Assembly (NCBI RefSeq): GCF_000179635.2
Contig: NC_014833.1
Span: 1,590,001 to 1,622,000, forward strand
DNA: 32,000 bases
Origin: Ruminococcus albus 7 = DSM 20455
GTDB lineage: Bacteria > Bacillota > Clostridia > Oscillospirales > Ruminococcaceae
Reading direction: 5' to 3'
Numbering within the stretch: position 1 is the stretch's first letter; each line of letters starts with the position of its first letter. Position numbers and translations under genes: made by a program. Below the pieces are notes generated by a model. It saw nothing but the letters and a program-made list of their open reading frames with translations. It made no database searches and had not been told where the DNA came from. Shown in pieces: positions 4,610-26,058 of the stretch.

Positions 4610-5498
4610 TCATATTACTAACCGAATAAAGCTTAGCGGAGAAGATGCAGATGTTCACAAACTCATGGAAGAAATCAAAAACGATGAATTCGGATTGGGA
4701 ACGATAGATTTTGAAAAAGTCATATCCATGCCGGATAACATCTACAGAGGAAGTATAGGAGAAGCCGAAGAAAAACTCTATGGTAAAAACAACTGGTACG
4801 ACTGGAGTTTGGCAAACTGGGGTACAAAATGGAATGCATACGGTTACTATGAAGGCGAAGACTATTCATGCAATAAAGATAGTCTTCGCTTTCTTTCTGC
4901 CTGGTCAGCACCACACCCTGTTATCCAAAAGCTGTCCGAAATGTTTCCATGCGTGAAGATCGAACATAAGTGGGCTGATGAGGACATAGGTGTGAACTGC
5001 GGGCGCCGTACCTATTATAACGGCGAGAGGATAGAGGAATACTATCCGGATTACGGAAAAGAAAGCATAGAGTTCGCCGCAAAAGTTATGGAAATTCAGC
5101 TTGAGGAAGACTGTTGTCTTTATCTGAACGCCTCGGAAACAGGATATATCAACATCGAATATGACGATGGATACGAGCTTATTGAACTGTTTGGCAAGCC
5201 CGCACTGTTCACAAATGAGAGGATAACAGACGCAGATATCCCTAAAGGAATGTGCTGCTATCATCTGAGACACGGTGATGATGGAGATATCTGTGCTATA
5301 GAAAAGCGTGTTTCTGTAAACCATGCAGGTTCTGTGGTAACAAAAGATCCTGTAGATTTTGGCAAACAAGGTCGTATCACCTTTACAGAAGATACTTCAC
5401 CCAATTTCATCGGTGAGACTATGTCACTGTATGAATTCAGGGAATATAAACCGAAACAGTCGGAAGATGAAAACATTGGAATGGAGTTGAAACAATGA
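4602..5498 (+). CDS. ICE polyvalent-protein-type domain protein (DUF1281/Api92-like N-domain; C-terminal region resembling LPD28)
   Basis: GGAGG RBS precedes ATG 4602 (MPNHITNRIKLSG...NWYDWSLANWGTKWNAYG). The track start 4584 lies inside the upstream gene. The family assignment is from memory of the MPNW...NWGTKWN signature. Confidence 0.6.
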   Translation: MPNHITNRIKLSGEDADVHKLMEEIKNDEFGLGTIDFEKVISMPDNIYRGSIGEAEEKLYGKNNWYDWSLANWGTKWNAYGYYEGEDYSCNKDSLRFLSAWSAPHPVIQKLSEMFPCVKIEHKWADEDIGVNCGRRTYYNGERIEEYYPDYGKESIEFAAKVMEIQLEEDCCLYLNASETGYINIEYDDGYELIELFGKPALFTNERITDADIPKGMCCYHLRHGDDGDICAIEKRVSVNHAGSVVTKDPVDFGKQGRITFTEDTSPNFIGETMSLYEFREYKPKQSEDENIGMELKQ

Positions 5499-6082
5499 GT
5501 ATTGAAATTATAGAAGCTGAAAAGCTGCGTACAATGTCAGAGGATGAGGGACTTATCCTGCAGGGCTGCGGCGGTGAGCTGAAGGAATGGCTTAACGGGA
5601 TAAATGATATGCTGACAGATCAAGGAATACTTCAGAAAGGCAGCAGATTTGAGGATATCTCTGTCTTTCAGCATGACAGCTGTACCTGTATACTGTTTCC
5701 TTTTAAGGGCGTAGATATTGACATCGGTAAGCTTGCTATGTGGCGCTTGCAGACTCACGCTCAGTTCGGCGGCACCTGGCTTTCCGACTATGTCCCGAAC
5801 CGACTAGGCGGATTCGTGACCGAGGAACACAGTCAGGAAAGCCCCAAACCAAGATGTCCGCTTATTGGTGCTGACGGAAATATTTTCAATCTTATAGGGA
5901 TCGAAGCAAGAACTCTCAGAAGAAATGGAATGAGTAATGAAGCAAAGGAGATGTCTGAACGTGTTACAAACTCGGGCAGCTATAATGAAGCGCTGAGTAT
6001 TATCGGAGAGTATGTGGATATATGCTCGGAGGATGAAATGGAAGAAGAGACAATAGATATCGAAGGAGGAATGTCAGAATGA
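5495..6082 (+). CDS. Hypothetical ICE-associated protein (195 aa)
   Basis: ATGA stop/start overlap with the upstream gene (translational coupling). The C-terminal CPLIGADGNIFNLIGIEARTLRRNGMSNEAKEMSERV...SYNEALSIIGEYV segment looks like a domain I have seen in mobile-element polyvalent proteins, but I cannot name it. Confidence 0.55.
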   Translation: MSIEIIEAEKLRTMSEDEGLILQGCGGELKEWLNGINDMLTDQGILQKGSRFEDISVFQHDSCTCILFPFKGVDIDIGKLAMWRLQTHAQFGGTWLSDYVPNRLGGFVTEEHSQESPKPRCPLIGADGNIFNLIGIEARTLRRNGMSNEAKEMSERVTNSGSYNEALSIIGEYVDICSEDEMEEETIDIEGGMSE

Positions 6083-20986: not shown

Positions 20987-21220
20987 TTGTCAAAAAAGAG
21001 AAAAAACGGCGTTCAGGCACTTATCGGCCTTGAACGCTTTACTCGATACGGAGTAAAAACTGATAAAGCTGAGATCGTTATGTTTGCAGTCGAACCGACT
21101 AATATCTCCGTGCTTTCTGCGTCAAATATAGATACAAAGATCCACAGCCTGATGCTTGTTCTGTCGGTCATACCTGACCTTGAACTTATCGCTTCAGACA
21201 GTGCCGAACGTTTTGACGAT
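20987..21220 (+). pseudogene. VirB4-like T4SS ATPase, N-terminal ~78 codons only
   Basis: TTG start follows directly after the PrgI-like stop. GVQALIGLERFTRYGVKTDKAEIVMFAVEPTNISVLSASNIDTKIHSLMLVLSVIPDLELIASDSAERFDD matches the conserved N-terminus of Firmicutes VirB4/CD1110-type ATPases. The frame then runs into unrelated sequence and stops at 21268. No Walker motifs follow. Confidence 0.75.
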
Positions 21221-21221
21221 A

Positions 21222-22277
21222 GGTTACACTCCTTTAGAGGATCTGAAACTAAACAACAAATCAGATAAAGATACAGACGGCGACGGTATCCCCGATTATC
21301 TTGAATTATCTGAATATGATCTTGGCACATTTGACAATACTACCGGAGACTATAAACCGGCTAATTACGGTCATTATTTTAATTTGGCTTCAAATATTGG
21401 CATTCTTGTAAGCGGTTCAGTCGGCGATAAAATAATGAATACCTATACCTCGTCATTCCGTTCACATCCATTTAATAGGAATAGCGATGATGATGACTAT
21501 ACAGATGATGAGGATGGTACACCTGAAGAAGAGAATGAAGATCTGATTGAAATATTATCATTGGTTGATAATACGTGCATGTGGGAGTCAGGCTGGTTTA
21601 AGGAATACTATGAATCAAAAGGTAAAAAATGCAGAATTCGCTATTTTAATGGATATGATACATTTATTCTACAGTGGAATCGTATAGGTGGCAGCGATGA
21701 TGGTTCCTACGACTATTACTACAATGTAACTGATGTTATTTTAATATCACATGGAAACCCTGGTTATTTTCTTCTTGGTAACAATGTGGCTCTTACTTCT
21801 AAAAACACCAGAGACGGTGTAAATTTTCATCGAATCGAAGACATCGATGACTGTAGACAATTCGATAATTTAGAAATGATGATATGCTCTAGCGATTGTG
21901 TTCCTGATGAAGATGGTTATACTAAAAGCACCGCAGAAGCGTTCTTTGACCATTTTCGCAGCATAAACAGAGTATTCGCATTTGATTGCACTAGTTGCCT
22001 TGTAAGTGGTTATGACTATCCGGTTTGGGCAGGAGCTGTCATGTATTTTCCAGTCATACCTTATGTCCCACCTCTTGAACCAAGTTTAAATGATCCACAA
22101 ATGCTAATTTGTTTGAGCACTTCGAGCTGTAAAGGTCAGGTTTTATATGAACGAGGTAAGGATAAAAATAGTGACTTGTACGATGGGTTAGATGATGTTC
22201 AAATAGAAGTCTATTATACGAAAATGTATACAACCGGTTATGGTGCAGAATTAGGAGAAATTCATATGGATCCAGCT
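21222..22277 (+). pseudogene. 3' portion of a secreted/polymorphic protein gene (no start, fused out of frame to the virB4 stub), part 1
   Basis: The frame begins mid-protein (GYTPLEDLKLNNKSDKDTDGDGIPDYLE, a thrombospondin-type-3-like Ca-binding repeat). The ATG at 21156 lies inside the virB4 remnant and has no RBS. The frame is interrupted at 22277 by the IS-like element. Confidence 0.65.
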
Positions 22278-22646
22278 TGTGTATGCCGTTTCGTCAGAGC
22301 CATCTGCACGGACTTTGAGAGCCACTTTCACGGAGTAAAGAGCCACTTGTGATAAACGCCATTCTCGAACTAGGTTCGTTCGCATTTATTCCACAGTCCA
22401 CTTGACAGCAAGCCTCTATGAGTGCGGTAGTCCGGCAGCACAGGCAGGCAGCCACGAGGGCTGCTGCCTGGCCACCAGCCTACCACACTCATACTCACTG
22501 TCAAGCGGCTTTTGCGGTGTATATACCGCTCCGACTACCACAGCTGCACGGACATTTTGCCCACGCTTGCCGCAGACTGCCCACGGGCACTGCACGGCAA
22601 AATATGATATACTTGATATGGCACGTCAATGACGTGACTACATATC
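22278..22646. repeat. Left inverted arm of the IS-like element (GC-rich, contains 3 AGAGCCA sub-repeats and an extra 105-nt hairpin)
   Basis: The reverse complement aligns by eye with 23741..24001. AGAGCCA copies start at 22296, 22317 and 22339, a period of about 21-22 bp. Confidence 0.8.
22401..22505. other. Long imperfect GC-rich hairpin present only in the left arm
   Basis: Paired blocks are cttgacag/ctgtcaag, tatgagtg/cactcata, ggtag/ctacc and ggcaggcagcc/ggctgctgcc around the loop acgag. Confidence 0.7.
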
Positions 22647-22661
22647 AAGGAGGTCTATCAT

Positions 22662-23165
22662 ATGGTGGACTACAAAGAGATACTCAGGCTTACCAGTATT
22701 ATTCAGGGACAGGGGACCATTCCGAGAGATGAGTCAGACCGAAATATCAGTTATAACAAGGCTTCTATCCCGACGTATAAACTCGTTAAGGAAAACGACT
22801 TTATTATGCATCTTCGTCCGTTCGAATGGGGACTGGAGATTGCTACAAGGGAAGGCATTGTCAGCCCTGCATACACGATTTTGAGAAACAAGGTTGAACT
22901 GGTTCCAGAGTTCTATCGGTATTATTTCAGGTCTTCAAGCTTTATTGTGGAAAAGCTGACAGGGATTACCGAAGGTATCCGTGATGGACGTTCCATCAAT
23001 ATGGATGACTTCTGGCTCTTAGAGATTCCTTACCCGTCTATTCCAGAACAGAGAAAAATCGGTCAGTTCATGGACCTGATAAACAGGCAGATACAGATTG
23101 AAAAGGATAAGCTGCAAGCCATCAAGTTGGTAAAGAAAGGTCTGCTTCAGCAGATGTTTGTGTGA
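22662..23165 (+). pseudogene. Chimeric ORF: IS21-IstA-like first ~13 codons fused to the C-terminal half of a type I restriction specificity subunit (HsdS)
   Basis: From about codon 20 the sequence is a typical HsdS target-recognition domain plus conserved tail: GIVSPAYTIL...EFYRYYFRSSSF...IPYPSIPEQRKIGQFMDLINRQIQIEKDKLQAIKLVKKGLLQQMFV. The N-terminal TRD is missing, and no hsdM or hsdR is nearby. Confidence 0.7.
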
Positions 23166-23174
23166 GGTAATGGC

Positions 23175-23471
23175 ATGAGGAATACAACGACCTTCAAAGA
23201 ATTGATACAAGCATTGCTGGACGGAGCCACAGAAGGCATCTCAGCCACAAAGACTCTACGAATCGTCGGAGACCAGCTCATTCACTATAACACACCGATT
23301 GCAGAACGGTTTGACGGCAAGGTGTTAGTAAACAATTCACGATATTCACTTACCACGGGACAGCTTCAGAAACAAATCCGAAGCATGGTTCCCGAAGAAC
23401 AGCAGGTGATAGTAAAGCGTGTGCCTGTTAACTACAATGGTTTGTTGCGTGATTTTGTAGAAAGCAGGTGA
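23175..23471 (+). CDS. Hypothetical protein (98 aa), cargo of the IS-like element
   Basis: GAGG-type RBS (tgaggtaatggc ATG). Translation is compact and looks globular (LRIVGDQLIHYNTPIAERFDGKVLVNNSRYSLTTGQLQKQI). I cannot name a family. Confidence 0.45.
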   Translation: MRNTTTFKELIQALLDGATEGISATKTLRIVGDQLIHYNTPIAERFDGKVLVNNSRYSLTTGQLQKQIRSMVPEEQQVIVKRVPVNYNGLLRDFVESR

Positions 23472-23475
23472 TGGT

Positions 23476-23715
23476 ATGCCGAGACAGAAGAAAGACGGAG
23501 TTAATATCAACTACTTCATCCGCCGAGATGTCAAAGAGAAGCTGGATGCGTACTGTGAAGACGTCGGACAGAAGGCGATAATAAGGCTGATACAACGAAA
23601 TAAAACCAACCACAGGTTTATTGTCTTTTTTGAAAAAAGGTGTATCATAATATTAAATATAATTTCGGCGGTGTTACGCTGCGTATCGTATCAGCTACCA
23701 GATCGTTCAACATAG
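23476..23715 (+). CDS. Ribbon-helix-helix-like N-terminus running into probable IS remnant sequence (possibly chimeric/pseudogene)
   Basis: MPRQKKDGVNINYFIRRDVKEKLDAYCEDVGQ matches the RHH beta-strand plus helix-1 pattern. The tail (..CVSYQLPDRST) may be a remnant of an IstB C-terminus. This is uncertain. Confidence 0.3.
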   Translation: MPRQKKDGVNINYFIRRDVKEKLDAYCEDVGQKAIIRLIQRNKTNHRFIVFFEKRCIIILNIISAVLRCVSYQLPDRST

Positions 23716-23740
23716 CTCACGCACCAAAGTGGTCAGCAGT

Positions 23741-24001
23741 GATATGTAGTCACGTCATTGACGTGCCATATCAAGTATATCCATATTTTGACGGGCATTG
23801 CCCGTGGGCAGTCAGCGGCGAGGTGTGGCAAGTTATCCGTGCAGTTGTGGCAGTGTGGGCGGGATATACATGCGGCATAAAAGCTCACTCCGTCATGCAG
23901 ATTATCGAAGTGGCTCTCATGTCTGGCAAGGTGGCTCTCAAACAGCGGCAGACTGGCTCTGAAACACCGTGCAGGTGGTTCTCACACGCCGGCGTATACA
24001 C
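23741..24001. repeat. Right inverted arm of the IS-like element (4 TGGCTCT/TGGTTCT sub-repeats)
   Basis: Copies are at 23911, 23932, 23954 and 23976, the same 21-22 bp period. The inner 40 nt (gatatgtagtcacgtcattgacgtgccatatcaagtatat) is almost identical to the reverse complement of 22607..22646. Confidence 0.8.
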
Positions 24002-24083
24002 AGCTTCGAAATTTTTCATTGAACCTAATGAATTTGGCTTTGATCCAGTATTCTACGACGAATATTTATCAAGCCAGAATTAA
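24002..24083 (+). pseudogene. Last ~26 codons of the interrupted secreted-protein gene, part 2
   Basis: Deleting 22278..24005 joins ...GEIHMDPA to SKFFIEPNEFGFDPVFYDEYLSSQN* in frame. The removed length is 1728 nt, which is 3 x 576. Confidence 0.65.
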
Positions 24084-24133
24084 TAACAGAAATACAGATT
24101 ATCTGATCTTGATAAAAGATAATATGTACAGAA

Positions 24134-24168
24134 AAGACTGACTGTTCTGAACAATCGGTCTTTTCTTA
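24134..24168 (+). terminator. Rho-independent terminator candidate for the interrupted gene
   Basis: aagactga...tcggtctt forms an 8-bp stem (one G:U) followed by ttctta. Confidence 0.4.
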
Positions 24169-24516
24169 TACTCTTTTATTGCAGTGTTATGCGCTTGAAT
24201 AGAATTTTGGATGTAACCGTCGATTCCTTTGCACCTACCATTCCGAAATCTACAAGTAGATTATAGCTTGTATTTTCTGAACCAGGGAAGTTATTAGGAA
24301 CATTTGAATACTTTAGTCTAACATATGTCTTAGTAATAACACCATTTGAAGTGATATGCTTGTTTTATATTTTCTACCTTATGTACAATTGACTATGTGA
24401 TAGATTAAACAAACTGATGAAAAGAGGAGTAACTAACTTTGATTTCAGTGGAAATAAAGTTGATTATAGATGATAAATAAATCTATTTCTTTAATGTAGA
24501 ACCGGGATGAAATCAA

Positions 24517-24545
24517 TTGACTTTCTTGCCAAAATATGATATAGT
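24517..24545 (+). promoter_or_regulatory. Sigma-A-type promoter for the 24607..27400 operon
   Basis: TTGACT (24517-22), a 17-nt spacer, then TATAGT (24540-45), about 60 nt upstream of the start codon. Confidence 0.55.
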
Positions 24546-24606
24546 ATTAATATGAATAATTGTAATTTGTCACATTGCGAATTTTGATTATTTGTTTAGG
24601 GGTGAT

Positions 24607-26058
24607 ATGATGTTAATAAGACGCATTCTGTTTAACAGGCTAATATCGTTGATGTTAGTTGTCTCGATTTTGCTTATGACCGTTGGTTGCTCTAATGCAC
24701 CGCCAACTCCTACTATTTCAGATGCAAATCCGCAGACGGTTACGGAGAACATTGAGGTTGAAAACATTATTACAGAGGATATACTCCATGAGTTTATCAC
24801 AACTGAGGTCTATTTGCAGGAATTTGTCATAGCCGAAGATAAAATTACAGAGTTGTTGCTGGAAGAAGATATGATCGATGAAGTAACAATGTGTAAGACT
24901 ATCTATGTACCTCAAGAACATCTTGAAGACTTTTCTGAGAACAGCCAAACAGCGCAAATATTTGGTGATGGAGTTGATATTAAATCAGTACTAACAAAAG
25001 TAGCGATAGGTACTGGTGTAATTGTCACACTTGCTGTTGTAAAAAAAGTTGGTGTTCCTAAGCCAATCGCCAGCCTTGTTGTAGCCGCTGCTGATGAATC
25101 TCTTCAGTTTGCAAAATCAGGTGCTGTGGTCGGAACAGTGTTTGGAGCTTTTACTGGTGCTGGCAATGAAATCGATGAGACTGGACGAATAGCTGCTGTA
25201 ACCGGGTTTGCATTGGCTACTGTTGGAATGATTGTATCAATTGTTTCTTTGGTCGGTGCAATTCCTTCCGGTGGAACATCGAGCGTGGGTGTCGCAGAAG
25301 GAGTACACTTAGCTTGGGCAGGTGTGAAAGTTCTGCTCGCAACGGCAGGAATGGTATATACCACAAAAGATACTATCAAAGCATTTACATCTACTGATGC
25401 CGCCGATATTGATTGGAACAATATTGATTGGGAAAAAGTAGGAGTTTCAGCAGCTCAAAAAGCAGTTGAAAATGGTGCGGACGGCTATATGTGGGGAGCT
25501 ATATACGGAGCAATTGACGGCACAATAGAAGAATATTATCATAAGTATAGCACACCATACACCAAATATAATGATCGTTTGAAGCAAGTTCCTAAAGATG
25601 GCAAAAAAGGAAAATGGACAGGAAAAAGGGGCGAATCGGATTTTGTCCTTAACGAACCAATAGAGCTTCCAGACGGAACAAAAATTACAAAAGTTACATA
25701 TCAGAATGCAGTACCGGATTTTTCTCCCTATGCTAAAGCAGAGGTGAAAATACCGAGAATGACCGATAAACGATTAGGAACAGGCGGCAACTATGAACAA
25801 GCTGACCAAGCTCTTGCTGAATATTGGACAAAGATTAAGTATAACTTCGATGCAGTGAACAATGTCACTACATACGAATTTACAGCTAATGCATCTAAAA
25901 CATCAGTCGATCAGGAATGTGTTATCCAGTTTGTCCCGAACGCAGTTGGTGAAGTTCCGATGACACTTGTATTCGATGATAATGTTGATCCTTCATATGA
26001 TAAACAGAGTACTCTGATATTTGTAGAGAAAAAAGAAGAAAAGACGGAGGAAGAGTAA
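24607..26058 (+). CDS. Membrane-anchored polymorphic-toxin-like protein: signal/lipobox-like N-terminus, Gly-rich hydrophobic central region, N-terminal half of an HNH/EndoVII-type nuclease toxin domain, unrelated acidic tail
   Basis: AGGGG RBS precedes ATG 24607/24610. The lipobox-like segment is LLMTVGCS. WTGKRGESDFVLNEPIELPDGTKITKVTYQNAVPDFSPYAKAEVKIPRMTDKRLGTGGNYEQADQALAEYW matches the pre-catalytic half of LXG/colicin-DNase-like toxins as I remember them. No ..TWH(H/E)...H.GG catalytic half follows. Confidence 0.65.
   Translation: MMLIRRILFNRLISLMLVVSILLMTVGCSNAPPTPTISDANPQTVTENIEVENIITEDILHEFITTEVYLQEFVIAEDKITELLLEEDMIDEVTMCKTIYVPQEHLEDFSENSQTAQIFGDGVDIKSVLTKVAIGTGVIVTLAVVKKVGVPKPIASLVVAAADESLQFAKSGAVVGTVFGAFTGAGNEIDETGRIAAVTGFALATVGMIVSIVSLVGAIPSGGTSSVGVAEGVHLAWAGVKVLLATAGMVYTTKDTIKAFTSTDAADIDWNNIDWEKVGVSAAQKAVENGADGYMWGAIYGAIDGTIEEYYHKYSTPYTKYNDRLKQVPKDGKKGKWTGKRGESDFVLNEPIELPDGTKITKVTYQNAVPDFSPYAKAEVKIPRMTDKRLGTGGNYEQADQALAEYWTKIKYNFDAVNNVTTYEFTANASKTSVDQECVIQFVPNAVGEVPMTLVFDDNVDPSYDKQSTLIFVEKKEEKTEEE

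Follow-up and report, generated by a model that had tools for sequence, protein, structure and literature searches.

The 32,000-nucleotide stretch of the Ruminococcus albus 7 = DSM 20455 genome analysed here (NC_014833.1, positions 1,590,001 to 1,622,000; the window, in whose numbering all unprefixed positions are given) carries at 22274-24006 an insert with inverted arms that interrupts a gene, and the question is what kind of mobile DNA this insert represents. The original prediction described it as a single non-autonomous 1.72-kb insertion sequence (IS) with arms of 260-370 bp and a scrambled, defence-related cargo. A whole-genome search with 22274-24006, confirmed by BLAST, resolved the locus into separate layers, and we conclude that it very probably consists of two nested, transposase-less derivatives of the IS21 family: a MITE, or miniature inverted-repeat transposable element, and, inside it, a cassette carrying captured DNA.

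Architecture of the locus

IS21-family elements (IS21, IS100, IS408, IS5376 type) encode the DDE transposase IstA and the AAA+ helper IstB, have TGT...ACA tips with several subterminal repeats per end about two helical turns apart, and duplicate 4-8 bp of their target. In the search, query bases 4-244 and 1598-1727 were found directly adjoining each other at C1:1698997-1699364 and C1:2240284-2240649, with 99-100% identity, while bases 245-427 and 1467-1599 matched four other loci independently. When the three outer copies were aligned, the window showed two copies of TGCGG separated by 1353 bp where the intact copies have a single TGCGG, and apart from this insert the window sequence was perfectly continuous with them. 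Three different 5-bp duplications could be read from the alignment: CAGCT, ATGAT and TGCGG. Since intact MITE copies carry TGCGG only once, and since each element has its own tips and 5-bp duplication, the locus is best explained by two nested insertions.

This changes the picture of one IS with giant arms into one of two independent insertions, each with its own duplication, and each of the long arms proposed earlier turns out to be half of the MITE plus a 130-bp arm of the second element. The assignment to the IS21 family, the lack of autonomy and an insertion with a 5-bp duplication were all borne out; ends of a Tn7-like or Mu-like type were not, as IstA and IstB are the products of the matching autonomous elements. 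An Rfam scan of 21500-24800 at E<=1 gave zero matches, so that the GC-rich arms fit no described RNA family, and blastn with the entire element as query gave no match in plasmid or phage collections either.

Two events would account for this arrangement. The 365-bp MITE inserted into a gene of a remnant integrative and conjugative element (ICE), duplicating CAGCT, and either before or after this the 1353-bp cassette inserted in the middle of a MITE copy, duplicating TGCGG. We infer that both elements were mobilised in trans by IstA and IstB: they would have moved by the normal IS21 route, using the IstA transposase and the IstB AAA+ helper, with the element cleaved at its TGT/ACA tips and the target cut with a stagger of 5 bp.

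The outer MITE and the interrupted gene

With its insert, the MITE spans 22278-24000, and without the cassette it measures 365 bp. Its termini are those predicted, TGTGTATGCCG... at 22278 and ...CGGCGTATACA at 24000, and its tips could be fixed at TGT...ACA because the two other copies are flanked by ATGAT. The same alignment with the ATGAT-flanked copies defined the target duplication: a direct repeat does flank the element, as had been proposed, but it is CAGCT (22273-22277 on the left, 24001-24005 on the right), exactly 5 bp long, rather than AGCT(T) of 4-5 bp.

A left segment of 240 bp (22278-22517, plus strand; 99-100% identical to the two other copies) and a right segment of 130 bp (23871-24000, plus strand) bracket the cassette. 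On the left, the word AGAGCCA occurs at 22296, 22318 and 22339; on the right, it occurs on the minus strand at 23911-23917, 23932-23938 and 23954-23960, with the variant AGAACCA at 23976-23982. These AGAGCCA(C) words thus lie 19, 41 and 62 nt from the left tip and 19 (AGAACCA), 41, 63 and 84 nt from the right tip, confirming the three to four copies per arm, spaced 21-22 bp and starting 18-19 bp from the tip, that had been read from the sequence; the arms are also GC-rich as described (0.51-0.55, versus 0.33-0.37 in the flanks). Of the ten exact matches to AGAGCCA in the 32-kb window, six lie in the two MITE subterminal blocks, and these words are presumed to be IstA-binding sites.

The body of the MITE contains a GC-rich hairpin of 105 nt (22401-22505), present in all three copies, which lies on only one side of the window insert because the inner element inserted off-centre. 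The central hairpin region also occurs without IS21-type ends elsewhere in the same genus (G008:C36:14152-14297 and G022:C1:1295255-1295331, 75-82% identity), and it may be an independent small repeat that was captured by the MITE.

Searching the host genome with the arms, as had been suggested, thus yielded the MITE at two more loci, in addition to a parent-type IS for the inner element at C3:165360-171613. The MITE copies are 365-367 bp in length, run from TGTGTATGCCG to CGGCGTATACA and have no open reading frame (ORF). The second and third copies have flanks in common (at least 200 bp on the left and 121 bp on the right), indicating one insertion that was duplicated later, and an uninterrupted homologue of this second target is found at C1:2836023-2835706. 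The outer element is therefore of the MITE type: it is short, encodes nothing, has inverted ends like those of an IS and a duplicated target, and is present in several copies, with empty sites known. An IS of 2.77 kb in a relative (G015), with ends 85% and 77% like those of the MITE, encodes IstA (523 aa) and IstB (263 aa), while a MITE-type end in the own genome was otherwise found solo only, at C2:367870.

The 5' part of the interrupted gene occupies 21156-22277 on the plus strand, its frame being open from 21156, and the C-terminal 27 codons resume at 24001-24083. Joining the flanks with one CAGCT removed restores an ORF of 399 codons, reading from ...EIHMDPA straight into SKFFIEPNEF... and ending ...EIHMDPASKFFIEPNEFGFDPVFYDEYLSSQN, so that the predicted restoration of the frame upon excision holds. 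The empty site that was to be sought in relatives also exists: a homologue in one of them (G005, C46; 57% identity in the tblastn alignment) crosses the insertion site uninterrupted, and a degraded paralogue at C2:154851-154982 likewise covers this site. The gene belongs to an ICE remnant, in agreement with the VirD4/TraG-like and TrbL-like genes upstream of it in the gene table; the locus is then a case of an ICE-remnant gene inactivated by two stacked non-autonomous elements.

Ends and cargo of the inner cassette

The inner element is a non-autonomous IS21-family cassette of 1353 bp (22518-23870, plus strand), which runs from TGTATATACCGC to GGGATATACA, has termini and subterminal words matching native ISs, and is flanked by TGCGG at 22513-22517 and 23871-23875. 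Its left arm (22518-22661, plus strand) comprises a left inverted repeat (IRL) and an istA leader, in the order tip, three words, a 42-nt palindrome (22606-22647), the ribosome-binding site (RBS) AAGGAGG and ATG. The right arm (23740-23870, minus strand) is a second, inverted IRL with the leader palindrome at 23740-23781 and without RBS or istA. In both arms, words of the type (C/T)T(G/A)CC(C/A)(A/C)(C/A) are positioned 18, 40 and 60 nt from the tip, and native copies have the same layout. The two palindromes form a perfect inverted pair of 42 nt; of the earlier proposal that each arm has such a palindrome just upstream of an RBS, the pair stands, but an RBS exists only on the left and the right palindrome abuts an IS66 fragment. 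As RNA, the leader palindrome gives a hairpin of -23.9 kcal/mol (z -4.7) that abuts the Shine-Dalgarno sequence, and its possible roles are to reduce the translation of read-through transcripts or to serve as an operator.

The left arm is 98.6% identical to C1:1635911-1636052, 89.6% to the IRL at C3:171613-171470, and 92-93% to the left ends of ISs in two relatives (G032 and G033). The right arm matches the IRL at C3:171484-171613 with 94.7% identity, but the cassette's own left arm with only 87%. In native copies, the resemblance between the IRL and the right inverted repeat (IRR) is limited to the outer ~85 bp, and only the IRL has the palindrome, upstream of istA. Because the right arm has this palindrome and is closest to the C3 IRL, it is best read as a second, diverged and inverted left end; judged by their sequence, the two ~130-bp arms both correspond to the left end of a second IS21 variant. 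The two ends of the element had been taken to be intact, and this does not hold for the cassette, whose right end is a second left end instead of the native right end. Such an IRL/IRL structure would go back to a pair of inverted IS copies that later underwent internal deletions, and it should be an acceptable transposition substrate, given that all three words occur in the IRL as well as in the IRR.

The parent in the own genome (C3:165360-171613) starts MVDYKEILRLTSMGYS and shares IRL, palindrome and RBS with the cassette, and MVDYKEILRLTS is the beginning of its istA. Relatives have parents of 2.8 kb that are intact or nearly so (G032:C244, with IstA of 514 aa and IstB of 255 aa, and G033:C113). 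As is usual in the IS21 family, the parent copies have overlapping istA (helix-turn-helix, rve, Mu-transpos_C_2) and istB (IstB_IS21) genes, and profile matches of the G032 and G015 elements were 2e-9 and 8e-8 for rve, 1e-15 for Mu-transpos_C_2, and 2e-44 and 8e-45 for IstB_IS21.

Two observations concern copies of such sequences in the own genome. The nearest relative of the left arm is a solo left end with the first ~56 istA codons at C1:1635911-1636220, 98% identical to the cassette left arm and ending abruptly, 14 kb past the end of the window and 22 kb from the cassette. The copy at C3:165360-171613 is a hybrid, in which the left end and the N-terminus of istA belong to the variant with CTGCCACA words, while its istA C-terminus, istB and right end (with TGCGGTTC words) are 98% identical to the variant with GAACCGCA words, which suggests recombination between variants, perhaps via a shared recombinase-in-trio (RIT) insert.

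Behind the left arm, the cassette opens with a chimeric ORF of 167 aa (22662-23165, plus strand), in which istA codons 1-13 are followed by HsdS residues ~243-398, that is, part of the second target recognition domain (TRD2) and the C-terminal conserved region. The istA homology stops at 22699 (codon 13) and the hsdS homology starts at 22697, with TAT as microhomology. As proposed earlier, these 13 codons do represent the start of an istA, being identical to those of a 210-aa istA N-terminal fragment (C3:170837-171469) and of the relatives' 514-aa IstA, and the frame does continue into a C-terminal part of HsdS (Pfam Methylase_S, 4e-6), followed by a 98-aa ORF and a ribbon-helix-helix (RHH)-like ORF. 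The HsdS piece is 96.8% identical to residues 243-398 of a 398-aa HsdS, lacks the first ~30 residues of TRD2 and matches PHROG 2668 (function unknown).

Together, the hsdS 3' end, orf98 and the RHH gene form the captured tail of a type I restriction-modification (R-M) operon (22697-23606, plus strand), collinear with a natural operon. Up to 23582, this cargo has 90% nucleotide identity to the metagenomic contig L036 (4523-5408, plus 5471-5508), where the order is hsdR-hsdM-hsdS(398 aa)-orf98-RHH(67 aa), beside Tn554-like recombinase genes; a Butyrivibrio-type contig bears the same operon tail. The cargo is thus not scrambled, but one contiguous operon tail followed by two small IS scraps. The gene orf98 (23175-23471, plus strand) is an intact, conserved 98-aa gene with a DUF8033-like fold: it has 34 homologues, retains all 12 invariant residues, and its structure model is confident (pLDDT 90), with TM scores of 0.72-0.80 to phage DUF8033-type proteins. 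A fold search of the PDB with this model gave nothing significant, tblastn against plasmids gave no match, and neither NCBIfam nor PHROGs was informative on orf98 or the RHH gene. The latter (23476-23715, plus strand) is broken: aligned to the 67-aa RHH gene of L036, it shows an out-of-frame deletion of 62 bp between CAGA(A/C)GGC repeats that removes helix 2, after which the frame continues into junk, and the ORF has weak RepB-RCR_reg / RepA matches at residues 3-45 only. The operon tail is followed by ~40 bp of AT-rich DNA and then by the two scraps. One is an istA fragment of 15 codons (HNIKYNFGGVTLRIV; 23646-23690, plus strand) from a distant IS21 group, aligned by blastx to IstA residues 205-218 and matching C1:2838188 and C2:173434 over 28 nt at 93%; the other is a 46-bp fragment (23691-23736, minus strand) of the orf1/orf2 junction of a high-copy IS66-family element. 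The possible IstB tail was sought in 23560-23760 and none was found, the search returning the 15-codon istA scrap only.

No other hsdS and no related hsdM were found in the own genome. Since there is no cognate R-M source in it, the cargo was captured elsewhere and arrived inside the cassette, which would have been assembled in a replicon with a type I R-M operon. When 60 relatives were searched with the cassette, IS ends alone were returned and never the cargo, and exact scans of genome and metagenome contig collections for the two junctions (istA/hsdS and IS66/IRL) gave zero matches; GCA_000621285.1 and several ~1-kb Logan contigs, 100% identical to the cassette, are the same strain. A phase-variable hsdS shufflon or a functional type I R-M locus was also considered and rejected, as other hsdS genes and a related hsdM are missing from the genome and the inverted repeats, being ends of ISs, lie outside the coding sequence.

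Some observations concern the wider occurrence of these sequences. The IS66-family element has ~24 copies in the genome (e.g. C1:156597-156642), to which the scrap beside the cassette right arm is 87% identical. In other type I R-M operons, orf98 recurs at the end, after hsdS or hsdM (L036 5001-5505, L037 5001-5505, L077 4001-4450), and is usually followed by an RHH gene of 62-67 aa; in another lineage, orf98-related genes are found after type I hsdR or hsdS, and also beside other R-M or prophage genes. Type I R-M operons may have in these two genes an uncharacterised pair with an accessory or regulatory role. Operons of the source type adjoin a DUF6262 gene and large tyrosine recombinase genes (L036 5672-10297; L037 5565-10297) of a Tn554-like set, with recombinases of 637 and 781 aa in L036 and, in L037, also the start of a third (456 aa), so that such an operon is, as a whole, probably cargo of a site-specific mobile element in its turn.

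Known relatives, rival readings and mobility

The two elements share with the IS21 family the TGT...ACA tips, the multiple subterminal words in both inverted repeats and the 5-bp duplication, and differ from it in encoding neither IstA nor IstB, with istA codons 1-13 only; the cassette also has two left ends instead of an IRL and an IRR. The outer element resembles other MITEs in its length of 365-367 bp, its non-coding sequence, its IS-type inverted ends, its target duplication and its several copies, whereas its scarcity (three copies, representing two independent insertion sites), its unusually long internal GC-rich hairpin and the absence of a near-identical autonomous partner in the genome set it apart. 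Like mobile insertion cassettes (MICs), the inner element has IS-type ends around passenger DNA, no transposase, and a target duplication from movement as a unit. Unlike MICs such as MIC231, it derives from the IS21 family rather than IS231/IS4, its passengers are mostly gene fragments, both its ends come from left ends, it is single-copy, and its mobilisation in trans is putative. Composite transposons (Tn10 and Tn5, for example) rely on the outer ends of a pair of inverted ISs, a likely ancestry for the cassette with its outer IRLs bracketing captured DNA, but here neither flanking IS is complete, 130-183 bp of each being left without istA or istB. MITEs, MICs such as MIC231 of Bacillus cereus, and intercalated ISs are established categories of IS derivatives (PMC3129680; PMC3281130), and they fit what we find. 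The locus is ordinary IS debris, a MITE and a mobile insertion cassette, both of already known kinds.

Current understanding is unchanged by these findings, which are of low general interest and of use mainly in annotation and in work on IS21 end recognition. Automatic annotation would report a spurious "HsdS" of 167 aa at this locus, along with an ORF of 79 aa. The cassette is a natural case of an element with two left ends yet a clean 5-bp duplication, and the sister IS21 variants, in which IstA N-termini and subterminal words (CTGCCACA, GAACCGCA, AGAGCCAC) differ together, would be useful for end-recognition tests. The cargo points to a conserved, uncharacterised two-gene tail (DUF8033-like orf98 plus RHH) on some type I R-M operons.

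How do these data bear on other explanations? That the locus is a single 1.72-kb IS21 derivative, with arms of 260-370 bp representing the ends of one parent and its transposase genes swapped for defence fragments, is barely credible and is refuted by the alignment of the three outer copies. Its outer termini, flanking duplication and frame restoration are real, and both layers of the arms bear IS21-type repeated words; however, two other loci have the outer parts alone, as an element of 365 bp, TGT...ACA tips and a 5-bp duplication of its own mark the inner part, and the inner (CTGCCACA-type) and outer (AGAGCCAC) words differ and match different parent ISs. We regard it as very improbable that the inner segment is a non-mobile inverted duplication or rearrangement scar, left for instance by two IS21 insertions and subsequent in-place deletions, with TGCGG as a coincidence. 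The arms, only 87% identical and closest to different IS copies, would suit such a history, as would the IS scraps on the right side, which are typical of in-place decay, and the single known copy. What speaks against a scar is the exact 5-bp duplication lying precisely at both TGT/ACA tips in a MITE that is otherwise continuous, together with the lack of any source for the R-M fragment in the genome, so that it is not local DNA trapped between insertions into a 365-bp MITE.

A functional cassette under selection, in which the istA RBS drives an IstA(1-13)-HsdS' fusion and orf98 in a defence or anti-defence role (as a half-specificity subunit or decoy), is also quite unlikely. An intact RBS precedes the fusion, which is in frame, and orf98 has a confidently predicted fold and keeps all invariant residues of a family conserved at type I R-M operon ends. 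Yet the HsdS piece lacks the first ~30 TRD residues, the genome offers it neither an HsdM nor an HsdR partner, the RHH gene adjoining orf98 is frameshifted, the cassette is single-copy, and a consensus promoter scan gave only weak matches, 5 versus 3.6±2.0 expected in shuffles, and thus no better than chance. The nested pair of a MITE and a cassette remains our preferred reading, and several observations count against it: the MITE has only two independent sites in the genome, two of its three copies sharing flanks; no IS was found with ends near-identical to those of the MITE, the best being 77-85% identical; the cassette arms differ by 13%, which leaves their joint origin uncertain; and one cassette copy is known, in one strain, so that its mobility rests on a single target duplication.

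It is unlikely, if slightly less so, that the IRL/IRL cassette is a working IS21-family MIC that ferries an expressed orf98, and perhaps the IstA-HsdS' chimera, between replicons; if true, IstA can synapse two left ends, and IS21 is a vehicle for defence or anti-defence accessory genes. In this genome, the mobilisation in trans that was proposed earlier is unlikely, because no intact closely related istA remains: all such genes are split after ~residue 210 by RIT inserts of ~3.47 kb (C3:171469, C3:115218 and C1:938515), so that both elements are probably stranded and now immobile here. The sole contiguous IS21 copy (C3:104952-103438) is 36% identical. With the exception of that copy, all istA genes of two IS21 groups have a ~3.47-kb insert at the same codon (after ...VPDNL / CDNL), namely at C3:167511-170734, C3:115848-119313, C1:934420-937885, C1:2838229-2841726 and C2:169896-173393, and the one copy examined (C3:167511-170734) encodes three tyrosine recombinases.

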